Notes under the pieces: model-generated
Database searches by the model: none
Told to the model about the DNA's origin: nothing
What the model saw: only the letters and a program-made list of their open reading frames with translations
NCBI GenBank assembly: GCA_018819225.1
Contig: JAHJQN010000005.1
Span: 32,001 to 96,000, forward strand
DNA from: Candidatus Micrarchaeota archaeon
GTDB lineage: Archaea > Micrarchaeota > Micrarchaeia > Norongarragalinales > SBBD01
DNA: 64,000 nt
Reading direction: 5' to 3'
Program-made: the position numbers and the translations under genes
Shown here: piece by piece, positions 19,532-56,952 of the stretch
Numbering within the stretch: position 1 is the first letter of the stretch
How the letters are laid out: every line of letters begins with the position of its first letter

Positions 19532-20329
19532 TTAACGCCGGAGCACGCGGCGGAAGATGCGCCACACGCGGCCGAAGAATCCTTCACGGGCATGCATGGG
19601 TTCCGTGCTCCCCGTAATAATGCCCACGCCTTCCTTGAGAACGCGCGCCGCAGGCGAAGAACCCTTGTAGAGTACGATGGGCGTTCGGGCGGCAATGCTT
19701 TCCGGAATCAAGTGATCTTCCGGAATCGAGAAAATAACAGGGACTTCCGCCATCGTCTCAATTTCCTTATTGGATAACTCGAACGGGGAACCCGTCGAGC
19801 GATTGACGACGATGCCGCGCACGCGCGTCTTCTTGTCCTGGCACAACGAAACCACTTTCGCTGCCGATGTGGAGGAAGGCACATCCGGCGTCGTGATCAC
19901 GATGACTTCATCGCACGTCTCCAGAATATATTCGACGTCGGACGTGATACCCGGAGGGGAGTCGACGATGATGTAGTCGTAAGCCGTCATGCTCCACAAC
20001 ACGTTTTTCAAATTTTTCAAGCTCACGTCCGGATGGTACTTGAGACTCGCCGGAAGCACGCGGATGCCCGTTTGCGGTTGGACGACGACGGCTTCCGAAA
20101 CCTTGTTCTTGCCCTGAAGGACTTCTTGAATTCCAACGGCGCCGTAAGATAACCCGAGGTGGAGTCCAGTCGACGGATTGCTCAAATCGCAATCGACGAT
20201 AATGGAATTGCGGCCCATGCGCTTGAGAATCGCCGTCGTATTGACGGCTACAACGCTTTTTCCAACGCCTCCTTTACCGGATACGACCCCGATAATCTTA
20301 TTCTTACGATTAGTGTTTGCAGCTGGCAT
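19532..20329 (-). CDS. minD: MinD/ParA-family ATPase
   Basis: SGKGGVGKS deviant Walker A, VDCDL, IIVDSPPG, IPED, C-terminal amphipathic FFGRVWRIF. Confidence 0.9.
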   Translation of the reverse strand: MPAANTNRKNKIIGVVSGKGGVGKSVVAVNTTAILKRMGRNSIIVDCDLSNPSTGLHLGLSYGAVGIQEVLQGKNKVSEAVVVQPQTGIRVLPASLKYHPDVSLKNLKNVLWSMTAYDYIIVDSPPGITSDVEYILETCDEVIVITTPDVPSSTSAAKVVSLCQDKKTRVRGIVVNRSTGSPFELSNKEIETMAEVPVIFSIPEDHLIPESIAARTPIVLYKGSSPAARVLKEGVGIITGSTEPMHAREGFFGRVWRIFRRVLRR

Positions 20330-20390: not shown

Positions 20391-22118
20391 CTACTCCATC
20401 ATTTGCTTGAGTTGCCCCAAATAATCGGAGCGGTCTTGCCGGAACTGTTTGCGGGCATGCGCATCATCGCGTTTTTTGCGGAAGGAAACGAACATGGCGG
20501 CCGCCGCCACAATCGAAACACCGATGATGGCCGCGACCTCCGGTGGAAAACGCGCGATCAACGTGCTCACGGAATCGTCTTCGCGTTTGCGCACTTGAAC
20601 GGGCGTGCTTTTCGCATTCAAACCGTCTTCGGTAAACAAACGGAACGTGAACAAGTGCGACCCCGCGCTTCCAACGGGCGGGGTGACCCGGAAACCAAAC
20701 CGCGTAATGCCTCTCGGGAGCAATGGTTTTTGGATTTCCAAGGGCTGTAATTCAAAATCAACGGGCACTTCCAGCGCGGCTTGCACGTGCAGCGGTTGAA
20801 TCCCGGAATAAAACACGTCAACCGCCACTTCCCCTTCTTCCCCCTCGAATAATTCGGGGGCGAACAATCCTTTGACTTCCACGAATTCCAAGAGGCGCAA
20901 CTTTTCCTGCGTGACCGCTACCTGGTCGGTCTGCCAATCCACGTACGTGGAATACGTGGGGAGGACAAGGGGAAGGACGTACGTGGCGTACGCGATTTCG
21001 TTGGGATTCAAATTCAAAAACTCCCATCGAACCTTTAACGGCCGTTCTTGAATGATTTCTCCGGGTTTATCGAGAAAACGAATGTCTTGCGAGGTCACAT
21101 CCATGAGAGTGGGAATGGATTCGTAGACGTTGACGACGGGTATGGCTTTCGTGCCCAGATTGCGCACGTTGAGCGCGACCGTGGTTTCGCGCGCGAGCCG
21201 ATCAATGCGGATGTGTCGCAATACGACGGGGTAGGGGTATTCGCGCGGAAAGCTCTTGACGCGCAATACCATGTATTCAATCGTAGGGCGCGTGCTATGA
21301 ACCTCTAATTTCAGTAAATAATCGCCGGCCAACGCGTAATTCGGAACGGATAAACCGAAATTGATGATGCGTTCTTCTCCGGGGCGTAACGTCGTTTCCT
21401 TGGGCTGGAACGATACCCAGGATTCGGAAGTCCCGGTCACGAGCAAGCGAATGGTTTTCTCGGTTCCGCCGTCGTTGCGAATCGTAAAGGATTCGAATGC
21501 GCTCGTGCCCGCCAAGAGCTCTCTGAGAACCGTGTGGCGCAAGAACTTGATGTCCCCTTCAACGGGAATGATTTCATCCGGCAGGGGTTTCGGGGGCGTG
21601 AAATTATCGGTGGGCGGAATGAAAAATCCTCCGGACGAGCCACCCCCTCCCGGGGATTGCGGAGGAGGAGTCACCGGCGGATTCACGACGGAAAAGCATT
21701 CAGAAAACACTTCGCTTTGGTTCGCGTAATCGTCGTAATACGCGGTGGCGTTCGCGCAGTATATGCCGATGGGAAGCGTGCCCGTGCTCCAGCTCTTGAT
21801 GAGAATCACTTGCGAAAAACGCGAGATGAGCGTCGGCGAGTAATTGAACGAGTCCACGAGGTCATCCGTCGTGTTGAAGATGAGGACTTCCGCGGTCGCG
21901 TTCGCTTGAACGGTTCCGTTGTTGTAAAGCGTGAGAACGAAGTCGCCGCTGGCCCCTGAATAAATGGGATCGGGAGCTACGGTCAGGTTTTGGATCGTGA
22001 CGTTCGTGTAATTAGGCAAGTCGGACCGGAACCACGTCAGCGTGTCCGCGTAATCGGCGTGAGCGAGACTACTCAATAAGAAAAGAATAAAAAATAAAAA
22101 AAAGGTTTCATGGCTCAC
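20391..22118 (-). CDS. Exported multi-Ig-like (CARDB-like) protein with C-terminal TM anchor
   Basis: GTG start overlapping the upstream TGA; signal peptide, LYNNGTV and IRNDGG beta-sandwich motifs, PGGGGSSGG linker, TM followed by RKKR. Confidence 0.85.
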   Translation of the reverse strand: MSHETFFLFFILFLLSSLAHADYADTLTWFRSDLPNYTNVTIQNLTVAPDPIYSGASGDFVLTLYNNGTVQANATAEVLIFNTTDDLVDSFNYSPTLISRFSQVILIKSWSTGTLPIGIYCANATAYYDDYANQSEVFSECFSVVNPPVTPPPQSPGGGGSSGGFFIPPTDNFTPPKPLPDEIIPVEGDIKFLRHTVLRELLAGTSAFESFTIRNDGGTEKTIRLLVTGTSESWVSFQPKETTLRPGEERIINFGLSVPNYALAGDYLLKLEVHSTRPTIEYMVLRVKSFPREYPYPVVLRHIRIDRLARETTVALNVRNLGTKAIPVVNVYESIPTLMDVTSQDIRFLDKPGEIIQERPLKVRWEFLNLNPNEIAYATYVLPLVLPTYSTYVDWQTDQVAVTQEKLRLLEFVEVKGLFAPELFEGEEGEVAVDVFYSGIQPLHVQAALEVPVDFELQPLEIQKPLLPRGITRFGFRVTPPVGSAGSHLFTFRLFTEDGLNAKSTPVQVRKREDDSVSTLIARFPPEVAAIIGVSIVAAAAMFVSFRKKRDDAHARKQFRQDRSDYLGQLKQMME

Positions 22119-23074
22119 GTGACCTCGAAGAACATCGTGTACCATGTTTGTCCGATGCTTCCGCCTCCCGTGCCGATGTAGTCCAGTTTGTACTTGTAGA
22201 ACCATTCATCGTTCTTCGCCCCGGACGGCGGCGTGATGTTGATTCCGACGATGTATCGGCCGGGTTTCACGTCCTTAGCCCTTACTTTAACCGTAATCTT
22301 TTGGGTCCAACCCGATTGGAAGACGGGAAATGCCGGTTCCAGCAAGACGTCTACCGGATCCACTGAAACGTCAAAGTACTTTTTGGTTTCCTCGGGGTCG
22401 ACGTCGACGGTACGCGTGCCATCCGCGAACTCGCTTAACTTGAGCTCGCCGTGCGGCGGGTATTCAACCGAGAAGGCCATGCCCTGATAGGTCTGCACGA
22501 GCCACGTGGAATGGATGAAGAAATGCGTTTCGTATTCGTCGTTTCGTCTGGATAGCACGATGACTTCGCTCGGGAACGTTCCGTAACCGACTGCGGCCCA
22601 GCGGTCCGTCGGAGGATACTGGTACAATTTGCACCCGCTTTCATCGAACATGGGATACCATTCGGGCTGTTTCCAATAATTTTCCCCGAAATAGTTGGTG
22701 TCCGAAATTTTTCCGAGGTGGAACAACAGCTTTTGGACGTAGAAATCTTCAGGGAACGGAGGGACCTCGGCATACACTTGGGGAGGCAAGTCGCATCGCC
22801 GCTTGGCGATCTCGAACGGATCTTCCTGGTATTGCTGCAGGCGAACCATCAAGTCCGGGTACTTGGTCCAGAACGGATCCTCGGTCGGCGTCGGGGTTGT
22901 GGCCACTGTTATGGCCGTTGGAATGATTGTAGGCACCGGAGCCGGAGGAGCAAACGCGTCCTGCAACGGTCCCAAGAAATACAGTGCGAGCACCGCGATC
23001 ACGGCCAATCCAATCCACACTTCCTTGCCCATTTTCTTTCCGTGATGCGACGTGCTATGAGGCTTCTTCTTCAT
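22115..23074 (-). CDS. Membrane-tethered exported hypothetical protein
   Basis: N-terminal TM, PT linker, YWKQPEWYP, C-terminal Ig-like PGRYIVGINIT. Confidence 0.85.
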   Translation of the reverse strand: MKKKPHSTSHHGKKMGKEVWIGLAVIAVLALYFLGPLQDAFAPPAPVPTIIPTAITVATTPTPTEDPFWTKYPDLMVRLQQYQEDPFEIAKRRCDLPPQVYAEVPPFPEDFYVQKLLFHLGKISDTNYFGENYWKQPEWYPMFDESGCKLYQYPPTDRWAAVGYGTFPSEVIVLSRRNDEYETHFFIHSTWLVQTYQGMAFSVEYPPHGELKLSEFADGTRTVDVDPEETKKYFDVSVDPVDVLLEPAFPVFQSGWTQKITVKVRAKDVKPGRYIVGINITPPSGAKNDEWFYKYKLDYIGTGGGSIGQTWYTMFFEVT

Positions 23075-23094
23075 GATCTTTCCCCCTCTTATGC

Positions 23095-23703
23095 TTAGTT
23101 CGCGTTCGTGCTGTTGTGCGTGATCAAACGCTGTTCCACGAGACCGGATACGGACGTGAAGTTCGCGTACAACGTCACGTTAATCGAACAACATGCGGGT
23201 GAAGCCGTGGTATTGAGTTCCTGGAAAATCATTGCTTCCATGGAATTGTTCAACGGAATCTCTGGACCAATAGTTACCGCGTTGTTACCCACTCCACTTG
23301 CAGAACTGTTCACGCCCACCGTAATACCCGATGGAAGCGATGAATTGAATATGAGCGTCATGCTGAGATTCACGTTTCCGGCATTCGTGTACTGGAAAAT
23401 AGGTACCGCTGCTCCGGCTTGACACGAACCGCCGAATGCGGTGGTCAAACACGGTTCGACTCGCGTGCACGTTCCGGTGACGCAGGTAAAGTTAATGTCT
23501 GCAGTTGCGGGGCCGGGATCGGATGCACTCGAAGCATTCGCTTCACCGGCTCCCAACGGTAATGTAATCGTGAAACCCGTGTCCACCGGGACATTGAAGA
23601 TGACGGCGGTATTCGCCCATTCCGCTAACGGCATGGCAGCCAACGCAATAAATGCGGCAACAAAAACAATCAAGCGAAAGTGTTTCCAAACCATTGCGTC
23701 CAC
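23095..23703 (-). CDS. Secreted pilin-like subunit (hypothetical)
   Basis: Signal peptide; TNAGNVNL; homologous to the C-terminus of 23782-28341; own TATA-like sequence near 23751-23758. Confidence 0.8.
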   Translation of the reverse strand: MDAMVWKHFRLIVFVAAFIALAAMPLAEWANTAVIFNVPVDTGFTITLPLGAGEANASSASDPGPATADINFTCVTGTCTRVEPCLTTAFGGSCQAGAAVPIFQYTNAGNVNLSMTLIFNSSLPSGITVGVNSSASGVGNNAVTIGPEIPLNNSMEAMIFQELNTTASPACCSINVTLYANFTSVSGLVEQRLITHNSTNAN

Positions 23704-23781
23704 CTTTTAATTATACGAAGCGGGGATATGAATCCGTGACGTTTAAGGCCTATATAAAGCTTTCTGCGAGGGAAAAAATAA

Positions 23782-26700
23782 CTATTGTGATGCGGTGGCG
23801 TTGTGAGTAATTTCCACCCACTCGGCCATGCCTCCGCTGACGCCGCTGAAATCAGCCCAGCACCATAACTGTTCCCCTTCGCCCGTTGGAACCGTCGTAT
23901 TCACGAGGAACGGATCCGCCGCACTCGTATTGGTATTAATGGTGTGAGAGCTTCCGTAACCTGCGCCGGAATTGTGACATTTGAGGGTCACCCCCGTTGG
24001 AGGCGTTGCATTCAAGTAAATACTCCAATTGAGATTTGCATCCCCCGTATTATTGAAAATAAAGAACGGATTATCATTGTTTTGACAATTCGCGGTATAT
24101 CCGACGCATGGATGCACCTCCGTTTGATCGCCCGTCAAACTCGTGAAGTTCATGTCCAAGGTAAATGCAGGCGTGTAGTTGATGTGCAAGGCTGGTTTAT
24201 TATTTAGTGAGTGGTTTGCAGAAGAGATCACAAAACGTTCTGTTCCTGAATCGGGCACAGATACCGCACCGAAGATGGAAATCCATTCCGGGTGATTCAA
24301 TATTTGGGCATGGGCGATCGCTGGATCCAACGTGAAGTTCTTGTAACCGGTACTCTCGAATAATGCGGCAGTGGAATTCCAGGTATTCGAAGCATCATTA
24401 GAATGCATGGCTTTACAAGATATTAACTGCACGCGACTGACAACATGACCACCCAAAAGTCCATTGTTTTCTCCTGGATTGGTAGCAGTGGAAACATATA
24501 ATTCTGCTAGAATTTCATTGAAAATAATTCCGGATCCATTCGTTAATCCGGTTTCAAAATCCATATGCCATTTTCCGGATGCCCCTATCCCAAGGGTTTG
24601 GTTGGCTTCAATCAATTCATCTCCTTCCGGCGTACAAGCCGCATTTCCTGCATTTCCATACTCTGCAATATCAAAACTGGGGTAAACCGCTATAGTTCGA
24701 GAATAGTTCGCAGTAGAACCAACGGCTCCCCTTCCGGGAATCGTTAACGTAAACGATGTGACGGCTGGCACGGTCCAAGGCATACGGATGTGCACCTCGC
24801 GGTTCGTGCTCAACGTGATGTTTCGAATCGATGAATTGTCGGTATAACCCGGCGAACTGGCATTGAAGTAATGAGGCGTGTAATCCGTTTGCGTGTTCGT
24901 TCCGTCCGGCGCGTTGACGATCGTAAAAGCAGTGAGGGTCTGCCAAGGAGTCATTCCGTTCGAGTCCGTGGTGATTCCCGTGAGCATTTCCGTGCCAGAC
25001 GTGTAATTGGTGATCGAAACCGTGGCGCCGTTCATGGGATCGTCGGTCACGTTGGTGACATTCACCAACAAAAACCATTGCCGCGTGTAATTGTTTTCAT
25101 TTCCCCCGAACGTGACCAGGAGGTCATCAAACGAACTGTTGCGGAACACGTGGCCTTGCGAACCGCTGGAGAGGAATAAATCCTTGTTCTGCGTGTCACG
25201 GATGGTGTTGTTGATCCACAGGCTGTTGTTGGAGGCCACGATATGGATGCTGTTGTTGGAATGGTTTTGAATCGTGTTGTTCGTGAAATTGTTGAAATCG
25301 GAGTTGATGATCCTCACGCCCCGCGGTCCTCCCGTAAAGTTGTTGTTCTCGACGACGTGGTCGGTACGCGTTCCCGCAGAAACGGACCAAATACCTAATG
25401 CTTCCCCGTAACCGTCGCCATTATCTTTCATTTCCTCCACTGTATTGTTCCGAACGACGCACCACGCATTGTCGCCGGTCCCCTCGTAACCCAGCGCCAT
25501 GCCGTACGGAGACTGGTTGACGTAATTGTTTTCTATCGTGCAGTTATCGGAGTGGCCGTAGAAGAGGACGGAAAAATCAGCTCCTGACGGCGTGTGAACC
25601 GTGTTGTTTCGGAAAATGGTGTTGTTGGACGAGTCCTTGATTTGGATGGCTCCATAACCCTGCGTGCTGAAATTGTTGTTTCGGATGGTCGTATCGTATG
25701 CGAACGAAGCCAATACGCCATGCCGATATCCGTAAAAGGAACAGTTCGCGACGTCGGTTTCGTTAAAGTTTGTAATCGATACATGCGTTCCAACGCGTCC
25801 TACTCGGCTGATCGTATGGCCGTCGCAGTCGAGCGTCAACGTATTTGCCGCGATGGTGAAACAGGATCCGGGGGGGGCCGTCAGGTCGTTGTTCAACAAG
25901 ACGCTTTGTTTAATGGTTCCGCAACTCCCGTTTACAATCGCCGTAAAATTGTTTTTGTCAGTATCCGTTAAACCCCACTCGTCGGATCCGATGCAATTCC
26001 AGATGTATTTATTCGGAGGCAACCCAAAAACATTAAACGCGGTATTCGTCGCATTCTGTAAACCCGTAGCGCTCGTATTCGAGAAGTTGGCGGCCCAAAC
26101 TCCGGAAAAGTTGCCCCATAACGTTAGATTTTGAGGAGTTCCGGTGTCCACATCGATACTGCAGTTGAACGTAACCATCGCTTGGGCACTGCTGGAAACC
26201 GTGGTATTATCGGTCGCAGGACTAATCAATACCACGTCAGGGGGCTCGGAGTAATTGACATATAGATAAACCTGCGATAACGCATCTTGGGAAGAGATGG
26301 GATCCCGATCCTTACGATCTTCATCCTTGATGCCAAATCCGAAGAAATTAGTTCCAAGTCCATTTTCCATGTCCGTATGAGCTGCGTCTATAAGGGTATA
26401 ATTCGTCCACTGTAACCCTGGAACCGAAGCCACTCCGGTATGATAAATAGTCGAAGAATTCACGTAATCCCACGGCGAATCCGAACTACCGCAGGAAAAA
26501 CTGGATAACGGTTTGTTGATCGCGCGAATGGTATGGTTACTCGCATGAACAGTATTCCAGTACAACGAAGCCGTGATGTTGAAAATTTGTGCAGTACCTG
26601 GAATGCTGGTGGTGTCCCAGTCAATTGCAGGCCGGTAATCAATATCGTTATAATAGGTTGCAGTCGCATTCGTGCACGAAGTACTCGTAAGATTTCCTAC

Positions 26701-28341
26701 GATAAGAGAAAAAGCGCTGTCGACAGCACAACCGTAATAATTGTCGACAGTCGTACAACCAATACCCGAATAATTTATGGTGCGCCAGAACGTGGTATCG
26801 TTATTGTTTTCAGCAGCGGCATATCGCACAAACGGATCCAAGAATAACTGTTTGCCTTGCAAATTGGAGATGCGCAGCTCCGTTTGATTCGTCATCGAGA
26901 GCGAAAAGCCTTCCTCAATCAAGTCGTTGAAATCCAAAACGATATCGCCCGGTAACATGATGGAATGATCCTCGACGTAAACCGTGCTCCAATCCATTTC
27001 ATCCGATGAGAGCCGTAATCCGATGGACTGAATCTTGTCGTGAATGGGTTGCGGCGAATCCCGGAAATCCAAAGCGAACTTCGGATGTTTTTCGTTGCGC
27101 ACCTGACCGCGGAAGTTAACCCCTAATCCCTGCTTGATTTCGTGAACGCTTTGATCGCGATTCTCGAATACGATGAAGGGATCCAGTTTCACCGTGTAAT
27201 TGGGGGCTTGCAGTTGGAAGTGCGGGTTTTCCCACGTAAACGAAATGTATTCGTTGAAGCCCATCCACTTTCCGAAGAAGAACACGTTGACGGGTTTCTG
27301 ATACAAAATCGCGGTCTTGTATCCGTTGCCGCTTTCGATCACGTCCGCTTTCGCGCCAACGGCTTTCCCCGTCACCGGCAAGTCGGATTCGAATAATTTG
27401 ACTCCGCGCGGTTCAATTAATGCGGGAACAAGTGTGGGCATAGGAGTGGCATTTGCGGTGGGCGACGCGCTAACAGATGGCGTGGGGGTCATCGTGGCGT
27501 TCGGGGTTGGAGTCATGGTCGCGTTTGGAGTCGGCGTGGGAGCCGGTGTGGAAAACGAATACCCGTCTTCCCGCGAGCAGTTTTCAGAATTACAGCTTTC
27601 AACTGAGAAGAAATACTGCGTGGATGCCAGGAGACTGGAAAGGGTTAGCGAATGCGTTTGCACGAGCGAGGAATCCGATTCAATGAGACTGAGATCGATG
27701 TCTTGACCGTAATAGACCGTGGAATTCGCGGGCTGGTCGGTATCCCAGGAGATGAGCGCGCTGCTGGTTTGGGGTTCTGCAGTCACATTATCGATGATGG
27801 GAAAATCAGGGTAAGGCGTTGCCGTAGGCGTTGGAGTCGGAGTCGCTTCCAATTCGCAGGCGGTAGCGCAACACGTGCCGGAGTCGGAAGCATTGAGCCA
27901 TTGATCGCCAGGACAAATTTCTCCCTCTAAACAAATCGTTCCGTTTTGTTCCGCGCAAGTCGGTTCAGGGGTCGGAGTCGGTTCTTCCGTGGGAGTAGGT
28001 GTCGGGGATTCGCAGGCAACCGCACAACACAAACCGGTATCCGAAGCGTTGAGCCATTGATCGCCAGGACAAATTTCTTCCTCAGAACAAACGAACCCTC
28101 CTTGTTCCGCGCACGTGGGATCGGGAGTGGGCGTGGGCGCTTCAGTTGCAGTAGGAGTAGGGGTTTCCGTTGGAGTCGGCGTAGGAGTAGCAGTAGGAGT
28201 AGGCGTTTCCGTTGGAGAAGGAGTAGGGGTGGGCGTAGGATCGTCGGCCCCGGCAACCGCAGCCAGTAAAAAGACAATAACCACTAACAATCCAATGTTC
28301 GCGAGCAGGAAACTCCCACGGAAACGGGAGGGAAACGGCAT
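23782..28341 (-). CDS. Giant multidomain surface adhesin-like protein (1519 aa)
   Basis: Signal peptide, PT repeats, two 6-Cys modules, FN3-like (ISWDTDQPANSTVYYG), DNRLRE-like domains, NosD-like beta-helix (CFTIAANTLTLDCDGHTI), C-terminal pilin-like domain; no TM anchor. Confidence 0.9.
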   Translation of the reverse strand: MPFPSRFRGSFLLANIGLLVVIVFLLAAVAGADDPTPTPTPSPTETPTPTATPTPTPTETPTPTATEAPTPTPDPTCAEQGGFVCSEEEICPGDQWLNASDTGLCCAVACESPTPTPTEEPTPTPEPTCAEQNGTICLEGEICPGDQWLNASDSGTCCATACELEATPTPTPTATPYPDFPIIDNVTAEPQTSSALISWDTDQPANSTVYYGQDIDLSLIESDSSLVQTHSLTLSSLLASTQYFFSVESCNSENCSREDGYSFSTPAPTPTPNATMTPTPNATMTPTPSVSASPTANATPMPTLVPALIEPRGVKLFESDLPVTGKAVGAKADVIESGNGYKTAILYQKPVNVFFFGKWMGFNEYISFTWENPHFQLQAPNYTVKLDPFIVFENRDQSVHEIKQGLGVNFRGQVRNEKHPKFALDFRDSPQPIHDKIQSIGLRLSSDEMDWSTVYVEDHSIMLPGDIVLDFNDLIEEGFSLSMTNQTELRISNLQGKQLFLDPFVRYAAAENNNDTTFWRTINYSGIGCTTVDNYYGCAVDSAFSLIVGNLTSTSCTNATATYYNDIDYRPAIDWDTTSIPGTAQIFNITASLYWNTVHASNHTIRAINKPLSSFSCGSSDSPWDYVNSSTIYHTGVASVPGLQWTNYTLIDAAHTDMENGLGTNFFGFGIKDEDRKDRDPISSQDALSQVYLYVNYSEPPDVVLISPATDNTTVSSSAQAMVTFNCSIDVDTGTPQNLTLWGNFSGVWAANFSNTSATGLQNATNTAFNVFGLPPNKYIWNCIGSDEWGLTDTDKNNFTAIVNGSCGTIKQSVLLNNDLTAPPGSCFTIAANTLTLDCDGHTISRVGRVGTHVSITNFNETDVANCSFYGYRHGVLASFAYDTTIRNNNFSTQGYGAIQIKDSSNNTIFRNNTVHTPSGADFSVLFYGHSDNCTIENNYVNQSPYGMALGYEGTGDNAWCVVRNNTVEEMKDNGDGYGEALGIWSVSAGTRTDHVVENNNFTGGPRGVRIINSDFNNFTNNTIQNHSNNSIHIVASNNSLWINNTIRDTQNKDLFLSSGSQGHVFRNSSFDDLLVTFGGNENNYTRQWFLLVNVTNVTDDPMNGATVSITNYTSGTEMLTGITTDSNGMTPWQTLTAFTIVNAPDGTNTQTDYTPHYFNASSPGYTDNSSIRNITLSTNREVHIRMPWTVPAVTSFTLTIPGRGAVGSTANYSRTIAVYPSFDIAEYGNAGNAACTPEGDELIEANQTLGIGASGKWHMDFETGLTNGSGIIFNEILAELYVSTATNPGENNGLLGGHVVSRVQLISCKAMHSNDASNTWNSTAALFESTGYKNFTLDPAIAHAQILNHPEWISIFGAVSVPDSGTERFVISSANHSLNNKPALHINYTPAFTLDMNFTSLTGDQTEVHPCVGYTANCQNNDNPFFIFNNTGDANLNWSIYLNATPPTGVTLKCHNSGAGYGSSHTINTNTSAADPFLVNTTVPTGEGEQLWCWADFSGVSGGMAEWVEITHNATASQ

Positions 28342-55894: not shown

Positions 55895-55941
55895 ACTTCT
55901 TTGGTCGACCCTCACAATATAAAAAAGCAGTATGAATTACG

Positions 55942-56952
55942 ATGGATATGGTTCGGAAATCTATTTGGATTTTTCTCTTGTTTTCAATCGCAGTTTTTGG
56001 ATCCGTCAATGCCATCAACGAAACGTGTTCAAATTTGCATGGCACCCCCAACCCCGCAGAAAGCGCTCAATCCGTCGCCATCTCTTTCTTTTTTACAGGA
56101 AACGCTACGGGAACCATAACCTGCAACGGTGCTATAGACTCGAATCCACCGGTGAGCTGCTACGGTAATTCCTCTTCATGTACCGCGAACTGTGTTTGGG
56201 GGTCCGGAGGCACGTATCCAGTGGAAGCGGATTATGGATCGGCTGCGTGCAATCCATTTAATCAAACCATTAACGCGGAGGCAACGCCGACACCGACTCC
56301 CACTCCTTCCCCCACGCCTTGGCCCACTTGTTCGAACATGAATGGAACCGTTTGTGCATTAGAAGAAATTTGTCCTGCAGATCAATGGCTTAACGCATCG
56401 GATTCCGAGCGTTGTTGCGCGGTGGATTGTGAAGCGAATGCGACGCCAACCCCTTCCCCTACCGTGACGCCGACGCCTACGCCTCCAGGGAACGCAACCG
56501 AGTCCCCGACACCCTCGCTTACGCCCACTCCCACACTAACGCCGATTCCAACGAACACGCCGACACCGAGTCCGACGAATACGCCGGTGCCCACCGAACC
56601 CCATGTCGTTCCTTCGACGGCCACACCGTCAAGCCCAGTGCCTCCAGCTTTAGAGGAAGAAATTGAGGAATTGAGGGATCAAGTGGATGCGTTACCGGAA
56701 GGCAACGATAAGCAAGAGCTGTTCATCCTGCTTAATGAAGCGGAAGAAAACATGCAAGCCCAACAAACCAGCAAGGCGCGCGCCCTGATTCTTCAAGCGC
56801 GACTAAAAATTGCGGAAGCCGGTACGTACAAAACGGATCGCTCGACACCCATTTCATATGCGGAAATTGCGTTTGTCGGCGTGCTCGTGGCAGGAGTCGT
56901 GTGGGCGGTATCCGGGCTCATTATCCGCCGAGGAAAAATCAAACAAGCCTAG
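55942..56952 (+). CDS. Exported Cys-rich, PT-repeat protein with C-terminal TM anchor
   Basis: Signal peptide, Cys-rich N-domain, 6-Cys module shared with the 1519-aa protein, coiled segment, TM followed by RRGK. Confidence 0.87.
   Translation: MDMVRKSIWIFLLFSIAVFGSVNAINETCSNLHGTPNPAESAQSVAISFFFTGNATGTITCNGAIDSNPPVSCYGNSSSCTANCVWGSGGTYPVEADYGSAACNPFNQTINAEATPTPTPTPSPTPWPTCSNMNGTVCALEEICPADQWLNASDSERCCAVDCEANATPTPSPTVTPTPTPPGNATESPTPSLTPTPTLTPIPTNTPTPSPTNTPVPTEPHVVPSTATPSSPVPPALEEEIEELRDQVDALPEGNDKQELFILLNEAEENMQAQQTSKARALILQARLKIAEAGTYKTDRSTPISYAEIAFVGVLVAGVVWAVSGLIIRRGKIKQA

Follow-up and report, generated by a model that had tools for sequence, protein, structure and literature searches.

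How DPANN symbionts recognise and grip their hosts is an open question, and it is raised in concrete form by a run of minus-strand genes (28341 to 19532) in the window examined here, a stretch of 64,000 nucleotides (64 kb) of archaeal DNA: what is built by an operon in which a small secreted protein recurs as the end of a giant one? The window was found to be part of a 1.37-Mb genome (90% complete) with ribosomal and RNA polymerase genes around the operon, and the closest named relatives of the operon proteins were found in Candidatus Micrarchaeota and Norongarragalinales. The operon is real, conserved and undescribed; no published description was found in a literature search, outside of which most subscription papers lay. 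It probably encodes an adhesive pilus that is joined by donor-strand exchange and assembled with the help of a chaperone; polymerisation, chaperone action, the role of a MinD-like ATPase and host binding are the parts of this reading that we infer.

Five genes were found to follow one another, encoding proteins of 1519, 199/202, 319 and 575 aa and a MinD-like ATPase of 265 aa. The first four had been recognised as co-oriented open reading frames (ORFs) in the initial annotation, and all four were recovered in their place on the minus strand; the fifth, which is also conserved, had been left out of that set. The features are as follows.

23782..28341, minus strand: 1519-aa secreted adhesin-like protein, predicted acceptor-only tip subunit (sequence features, homology, donor-strand position-specific scoring matrix, PSSM).
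24721..24777, minus strand: first core strand of the tip pilin domain (aa 1189-1207), with no preceding donor strand (donor PSSM -5.2 bits, the chance level).
24163..24720, minus strand: domain of ~185 aa inserted in the variable loop of the tip pilin domain, CBM96/DNRLRE-like by features (score 0.91).
23785..24162, minus strand: core of the tip pilin domain (aa 1394-1519), acceptor-groove residues conserved (homology to the small subunit).
23751..23758, minus strand: TATA-like box before the small subunit gene, preceded by a T-run that follows the adhesin stop codon (consensus match only).
23095..23694, minus strand: 199-aa secreted major subunit (202 aa from GTG 23703) with signal peptide, donor strand and incomplete beta-sandwich (sequence and models).
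23581..23622, minus strand: predicted donor strand of the small subunit, mature residues 1-14 (conservation and AlphaFold2 models).
22115..23074, minus strand: 319-aa protein with N-terminal membrane anchor, helical region and PapD-like immunoglobulin (Ig) domain, probable assembly chaperone (fold, synteny).
20391..22118, minus strand: 575-aa protein, probable donor-only terminator and membrane anchor (domain layout, donor-like strand).
22020..22055, minus strand: donor-like strand at the mature N-terminus of the 575-aa anchor (PSSM, co-variation with the pilin).
19532..20329, minus strand: 265-aa MinD/ParA-family ATPase, a dedicated paralogue accompanying the anchor (family match, synteny).

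The small subunit gene probably starts at ATG 23694 (199 aa, as in the database record) and for the 575-aa gene the start is GTG 22118, in an overlap with the stop codon upstream. The small protein was found to share 32% identity over 134 aa with the C-terminus of the 1519-aa protein (pairwise E 5e-14), which was its sole paralogue among all six-frame ORFs of the genome (E 1.6e-10). The two had first been aligned along the whole mature length; the homology held, whereas its continuity did not. The main match covers aa 1394-1516 of the adhesin, a first motif (aa 1189-1202) lies ~190 residues upstream, and nothing in the adhesin corresponds to the small protein's first ~8 mature residues, in the donor strand. 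The ~185-aa insert between the two parts splits the pilin domain at the position of the family's variable loop, and relatives were found without it; it contained no Pfam or NCBIfam match, and its resemblance to carbohydrate-binding modules of the CBM96/DNRLRE type, by language-model features, is a lead only. Both proteins had also been said to lack a transmembrane anchor and a class III signal, which agrees with the presence of N-terminal hydrophobic segments only and of no FlaFind-type match. The TATA-like sequence that had been ascribed to the small gene is present (TTTATATA at 23758-23751, behind a purine-rich stretch resembling a transcription factor B recognition element) and was found upstream of 24/38 small-subunit genes and 8/27 anchor genes in related loci, but a similar motif precedes 292 of the 869 long ORFs of the genome (34%), which makes it weak as sole evidence for a promoter of the gene's own. 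A sigma-70 promoter scan, of which the consensus is bacterial and unsuited to archaea, gave nothing above chance.

Relatives of the small protein numbered 98 in a library-wide search and fell into two classes, stand-alone proteins of ~190 aa and long proteins (250 to >2000 aa) with the domain at the end, 0-9 residues from the C-terminus. In 70 stand-alone members a conserved alternating strand was found right behind the signal peptide. The AlphaFold2 monomer of the mature small subunit (predicted local distance difference test, pLDDT, 87.8; predicted template-modelling score 0.83) was an all-beta sandwich with residues 1-16 outside the sheet. When four copies were modelled, head-to-tail donor-strand insertion was obtained with a score of 0.62, against 0.00 for the best of 3 controls, with at least 87% contact agreement and pLDDT of at least 76 across the runs. 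In the interface, residues 1-14 of one copy contact a second copy at residues 43-57, 96-102 and 153-171 and V7, F9 and V11 of the donor strand are buried; this strand runs antiparallel to the last strand, an arrangement shared with chaperone-usher and Elr pili. The mark for this score was attained by 20/30 proteins solved as pairs and by 1/23 of those solved as single chains; with its own alignment and four copies, the present job can be set against these counts only approximately, and passing the mark may in part be due to resemblance to donor-strand filaments of solved structure. In three loci (L118:9228-10618, L021 and L039) the small subunit gene is duplicated in tandem. The two 205-aa copies in L118 appear identical at each end.

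The strand-pairing evidence would fit equally well if one or a few small subunits of the same donor-strand chain bridged the adhesin to the anchor as a short tether with no long filament, and the single operon and related adhesins of up to 3752 aa, which would give reach already, suit such a tether. The self-pairing of the subunit in the model, its tandem duplication and the more frequent TATA-like box before its gene argue against it, and we consider a tether unlikely.

The donor strand was found to be confined to certain members of the set. With the donor PSSM, the small subunits reached a leave-one-out median of 23.2 bits and 3/44 adhesins scored above the 95th percentile of the null, which is the chance rate; the acceptor-groove residues were conserved in the adhesins, including the 1519-aa one. 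Since its pilin domain accepts a strand and cannot donate one, the adhesin would be confined to the distal end. The 1519-aa protein contained a signal peptide followed by Pro/Thr linkers with two Cys-rich modules, an FN3-like domain, Ig-like domains, a beta-helix (aa ~843-1069) and the C-terminal pilin domain, with 66 N-glycosylation sequons in all. The payload, which here comprises the FN3-like, Ig-like and beta-helix parts, differs between loci.

Several further observations were made on the adhesins. The adhesin gene of L033, L035 and L036 stands apart from, or divergent to, the remaining operon. Copies of the Cys-rich module (~37 aa), 60-75% identical, were found in six secreted proteins of the genome that otherwise differ, encoded at 55936-56949 of the window (plus strand) and by five further ORFs on C5, C6 and C7. 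A 956-aa ORF outside the window (G000:C3:9251-12118, minus strand) is a paralogue of the adhesin middle and beta-helix and stops where the pilin domain would start. A motif at the start of the signal peptide (RG, an aromatic pair, then N) was common to adhesins (window 28270-28341, L024, L033, L077 and L079) and prompted a reversed polarity, with the adhesin as an N-terminally anchored base; this was rejected because the signal peptides of most adhesins are of the ordinary cleavable kind and an anchor bearing a donor strand exists apart from them.

The 575-aa family was found to contain a signal peptide, a strand of 12-20 residues, Ig-like domains, a C-terminal membrane helix and a conserved cytoplasmic tail. 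The strand scored above the 95th percentile of two controls with the donor PSSM in 20/30 homologues. Against the pilin donor strand of its own locus it scored 19.9, vs 9.7 +/- 1.1 against other pilins (38 loci, relatedness uncontrolled). In Iainarchaeota, where the anchor bodies gave no match to the 575-aa profile, the key Phe of the pilin donor strand is replaced by Trp, and the same F-to-W switch was found in the anchor strand. Five genomes contained the anchor and MinD with no pilin or helper of the family detected; their anchor strands were the lowest-scoring, and where the contig extends enough, other small secreted proteins and helpers take the place of the pilin and helper, in one type with the anchor N-terminus repeating the substitute small protein's own N-terminal motif. 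Such replacement is in effect an experiment of nature that favours a donor-only terminator.

Two further kinds of module were seen upstream of the same anchor and MinD cassette. In the second type (L121:9345-19998, L122, L123, L124, L125:7437-12122 and L126), the giant protein and the small secreted ones carry a different C-terminal motif, with faint SCPU/WxLIP-type matches, and the helper has its membrane helix at the C-terminus. A small protein of this type matches the profile of the present pilin (E 3e-5), and comparison of the two pilin profiles gave a probability of 3% and E 0.015, from three sequences only. The third type (L127:3953-11378 and L128) comprised a secreted protein of 233 aa bearing a GGNIT motif, a protein of 593 aa and an anchor in which the motif recurs at the N-terminus, followed by MinD.

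The 319-aa protein was the most conserved part of the operon, with many invariant residues outside the Ig domain. It contained an N-terminal membrane helix, its sole one, followed by a helical region and one C-terminal PapD-like Ig domain, of which the structure matches were EcpB (Z 7.8), WxLIP (Z 7.5, root-mean-square deviation (rmsd) 3.6, 113 aligned), YadV (Z 7.2) and FimC (Z 6.9), with CupB2, SafB and CsuC and also protease and ciliary Ig domains as further neighbours. No Pfam family was found in 26 members of the protein, and neither it nor the small protein could be assigned to a family from sequence searches of Pfam, NCBIfam and PDB; viral contigs scanned with the 319-aa alignment yielded no relative, nor did plasmids. 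Two 319-aa paralogues were found in 17 loci, and in ~11 of these one lay directly behind the adhesin gene and one behind the small subunit gene; paired copies were also present in divergent or convergent cassettes, and the adhesin-linked copies formed clades of their own in a quick tree. The protein is a probable assembly chaperone, and its copies may be subunit-specific, which would suit the separate ones that adjoin the adhesin and small subunit genes.

In structure searches, donor-strand filaments were among the top matches to the pilin model over its whole length, with Hyper2 (Z 7.1, rmsd 3.4 over 124), AbpA (Z 6.7, rmsd 6.0 over 135), Csu (Z 6.6), CanA (Z 6.3-6.5), TasA (Z 5.9, rmsd 3.5 over 132) and Tafi (Z 5.6), all tied with unrelated Ig folds; PapA (Z 6.3) and CfaB (Z 6.2) were matched as well. 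A Foldseek search against the PDB gave no match at E<=0.001. Among structure neighbours in the Atlas were clusters with PF12389 and DUF1102 (template-modelling (TM) score about 0.5). Two mostly viral (Uroviricota) Atlas clusters also reached a feature score of 0.92-0.94 against the small subunit, with no sequence link and with kinship not confirmed.

The matches to Hyper2, CanA, AbpA and TasA and the Atlas neighbours would also suit a fibre or matrix that self-assembles with no chaperone, of TasA, AbpA or cannula kind, in which the 319-aa protein would serve as a nucleator or as a second base in the membrane (TapA/AbpB-like); the strong conservation of that protein beyond its Ig domain could be read in the same way. 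We find this improbable, because no sequence match to TasA, PF12389, DUF1102 or signal-peptidase families was found, the 319-aa fold is PapD-like, a separate paralogue beside the adhesin suits subunit-specific chaperones, and the monomer model leaves the strand free.

Of the 201 genomes searched in this class, 25 encoded the small protein, 31 the 319-aa protein, 43 the 575-aa protein and 38 the MinD orthologue; 24 of the 25 pilin-positive genomes also contained the 319-aa and 575-aa genes. The distribution is patchy: several families of the order had no part of the operon in the genomes searched, and distant families had it. The order large-small-319-575-MinD recurs while the flanking genes change. 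A scan of GTDB genomes found 42 loci in Micrarchaeota, Iainarchaeota and unnamed archaea; the operon is kept across several families of Micrarchaeota and, without MinD, in Iainarchaeota. A wider range, suggested by records titled Chloroflexi and Thaumarchaeota (L100, L115), was rejected, as these group with Iainarchaeota, have archaeal neighbours and are probably mislabelled. A contig represented by L074 and L075 contained two subunit genes, a helper and a short tail-less anchor with no MinD, followed by many small ORFs with helix-turn-helix/TrmB domains, and may be a mobile element or virus bearing the module.

The MinD-like ATPase was found to contain an intact deviant Walker A motif and a C-terminal amphipathic helix. 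Its gene directly follows the anchor in 26/30 loci, three of the exceptions lying at contig edges, and the anchor was present in 37 of the 38 genomes with a MinD orthologue. The orthologues at these loci were closer to the present protein than are the three other MinD paralogues of its genome. The tail motif of the anchor and an adjacent MinD were both present in 16 loci, both absent in 16 and discordant in 7 (duplicates and kin included). MinD/ParA ATPases elsewhere have a positioning role, and by analogy this one probably positions anchors through their cytoplasmic tail, which is the weakest step of the scheme.

That the operon serves a surface lattice or S-layer accessory complex, the shared domain being only a docking module and the strand pairing a modelling artefact, is highly improbable. 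In its favour, archaeal envelopes typically contain secreted proteins with heavy glycosylation and many Ig domains, the secreted proteins here are rich in sequons and Ig domains, and the fold matches are middling. Against it, it fails to explain the strand on subunit and anchor, its absence on 41/44 adhesins and the co-variation within loci, the oligomer controls scored 0.00, and the gene set is patchy, not universal, in the class.

The donor-strand pilus would be assembled as follows. All subunits would leave the cell by Sec with their signal peptides cleaved, as their sequences suggest. The small subunit, modelled as an incomplete beta-sandwich, would use its freed N-terminal strand to fill the groove of the next copy. 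The giant protein, with a groove and no donor strand, could only accept, and would sit once, at the distal tip, with its variable adhesive payload. The donor-only strand of the 575-aa protein would terminate the chain and its C-terminal helix would hold it in the membrane; the 319-aa protein would attend the pilin-domain subunits as chaperone, and the ATPase would position or space the anchors.

Some points weigh against this scheme. Every family member is known from genes and models alone, the structure models cover the pilin without the insert of the tip, and kin loci are not independent, so the counts are descriptive. Every pilin fold match was below Z 8 and tied with integrin, MSP and generic Ig folds; therefore no single fold family is singled out. 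The anchor strand of this genome scored only 1.8 bits, although it ranked first of the 41 windows of that protein and matched the top score among 104 other secreted proteins in the genome. The MinD gene is not adjacent in the Iainarchaeota loci.

The initial annotation had proposed a shaft, tip, assembly factor and anchor joined by donor-strand exchange, and the structure model, the oligomer model, the pattern of donor-strand presence and the synteny support it. A multi-copy model of the small protein, a structure comparison with TasA, AbpA and Csu and a synteny search in DPANN genomes had been put forward with it; these gave the donor-strand chain, the matches tied with generic Ig folds and the co-occurrence of the operon genes. 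Dissimilar domains, a closed monomer and lack of co-occurrence had been named as signs of error, and none of the three was found. The two downstream proteins had been called membrane-tethered and Ig-rich; membrane helices are present in both and Ig-like domains in the 575-aa one, but the 319-aa protein has a single Ig domain. The likeness to known pili stood in part, as the closest models are Elr/WxL and Pam rather than TasA/AbpA and the donor strand of the anchor had been overlooked.

With the pilus as the preferred reading, a complete testable machine is named, with tip, shaft, helper, terminator and ATPase, which could be reconstituted in E. coli or Haloferax with no need to culture the symbiont. 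The operon is a concrete candidate for holding hosts or surfaces, its variable tips are candidate determinants of host specificity, and its proteins are search models for unidentified thin filaments in DPANN tomograms. A bolder and rather doubtful extension is that this is the first archaeal chaperone-assisted donor-strand pilus, DPANN-specific and with a pilin and a chaperone of its own; its platform of anchor plus MinD would have been fitted in different lineages with at least three unrelated-looking pilin/helper pairs by retuning of the anchor strand, MinD would place the fibres and fast-changing tips would choose the host.

Among known systems, the archaeal AbpA bundling pili (PMC9245690) and Tafi/DUF1102 fimbriae (PMC11821415) use strand donation and are described as chaperone-free, as are the archaeal donor-strand filaments so far reported, to which the operon adds a PapD-like helper. 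Like AbpA, CanA cannulae, the Sulfolobus thread Saci0406, Tafi and Bacillus TasA (whole-length alignments at Z 5.4-7.1, tied with unrelated Ig folds), the small subunit is a secreted beta protein of ~180 aa that has a predicted donor strand at its N-terminus; unlike in that group, the operon retains both a PapD-like helper and MinD. Tip and membrane-anchor subunits are present in Tafi too (PMC11821415), but Tafi has Tat (twin-arginine) export, a signal peptidase of its own (TafD) and an N-terminal pilin domain in the tip, whereas the present subunit contained no twin-arginine motif and the operon no signal-peptidase gene. Type IV pili and archaella are set apart by the lack of a FlaFind-type class III motif here and by an operon ATPase of MinD/ParA type, not an assembly ATPase with a TadC platform.

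Chaperone-usher pili (type 1 Fim, P, CFA/I and archaic Csu/CupE) share the tip adhesin with its acceptor-only pilin domain, the PapD-like chaperone fold (Z 6-8), a similar pilin fold and, in models only, an incomplete Ig-like pilin whose gap is filled by an N-terminal donor strand. They differ in that there is no outer membrane here and the helper is membrane-bound with one Ig domain, vs the soluble two-domain PapD chaperone; no outer-membrane usher gene was found in the window or related loci, and no chaperone-usher Pfam family, PapD included, was matched.

The Pam pilus (PMC13278184), reported from CPR (candidate phyla radiation) bacteria only, likewise belongs to a small-genome symbiont, with Sec-exported Ig-like pilins and donor-strand exchange. 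Its two membrane-anchored PapD-like chaperones resemble the helper here, and its terminator/anchor PamR, with an N-terminal strand and C-terminal helix, resembles the 575-aa protein (PMC13278184). Unlike the single-domain pilin with its N-terminal strand, Pam pilins are two-domain proteins in which an internal linker acts as donor; PamT, at the tip, consists of a pilin domain alone and is no giant adhesin, the chaperones have C-terminal helices and two beta-domains, and no ATPase is named. Atlas neighbours of the 319-aa model include CPR clusters, at TM scores of 0.37-0.39 only.

In the Elr/WxL pilus of Enterococcus faecalis and other Bacilli, the four roles are established by cryo-electron microscopy and genetics, and WxL systems are reported in Bacillota only (10.64898/2026.10.17.759780). 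There the pilin is primed by its chaperone through parallel strand complementation, on which polymer formation depends. Its pattern of acceptor-only tip, donor-and-acceptor shaft and donor-only terminator was matched here at the level of sequence and model only. Both systems, the present one by prediction, contain an acceptor-only adhesin with a C-terminal pilin domain and a variable payload that includes a beta-helix (10.64898/2026.10.17.759780), followed by a single-domain pilin with an antiparallel N-terminal donor strand of ~14 residues, a membrane-tethered PapD-like chaperone and a donor-only terminator, with no usher. The present helper differs in its N-terminal, not C-terminal, membrane helix and its helical N-domain, the anchor is a multi-Ig membrane protein of 575 aa with a cytoplasmic tail and no LPxTG/sortase, and a dedicated MinD-like ATPase and an archaeal host are further differences. 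WxL (PF13731) gave no genome match at E<=1, though controls scored, and none in 71 family members; DUF916 and DUF3324 gave none in the 319-aa family. Because the tested family markers were not found, the operon is not assigned to the known pilus families, and is described as working like the Elr/WxL and Pam pili. A tip, shaft and membrane anchor locked by a lent strand is a design so far shown only in bacteria; if the present reading is true, the usher-free pilus plan of Enterococcus and CPR bacteria is also found in archaea, by descent or convergence.

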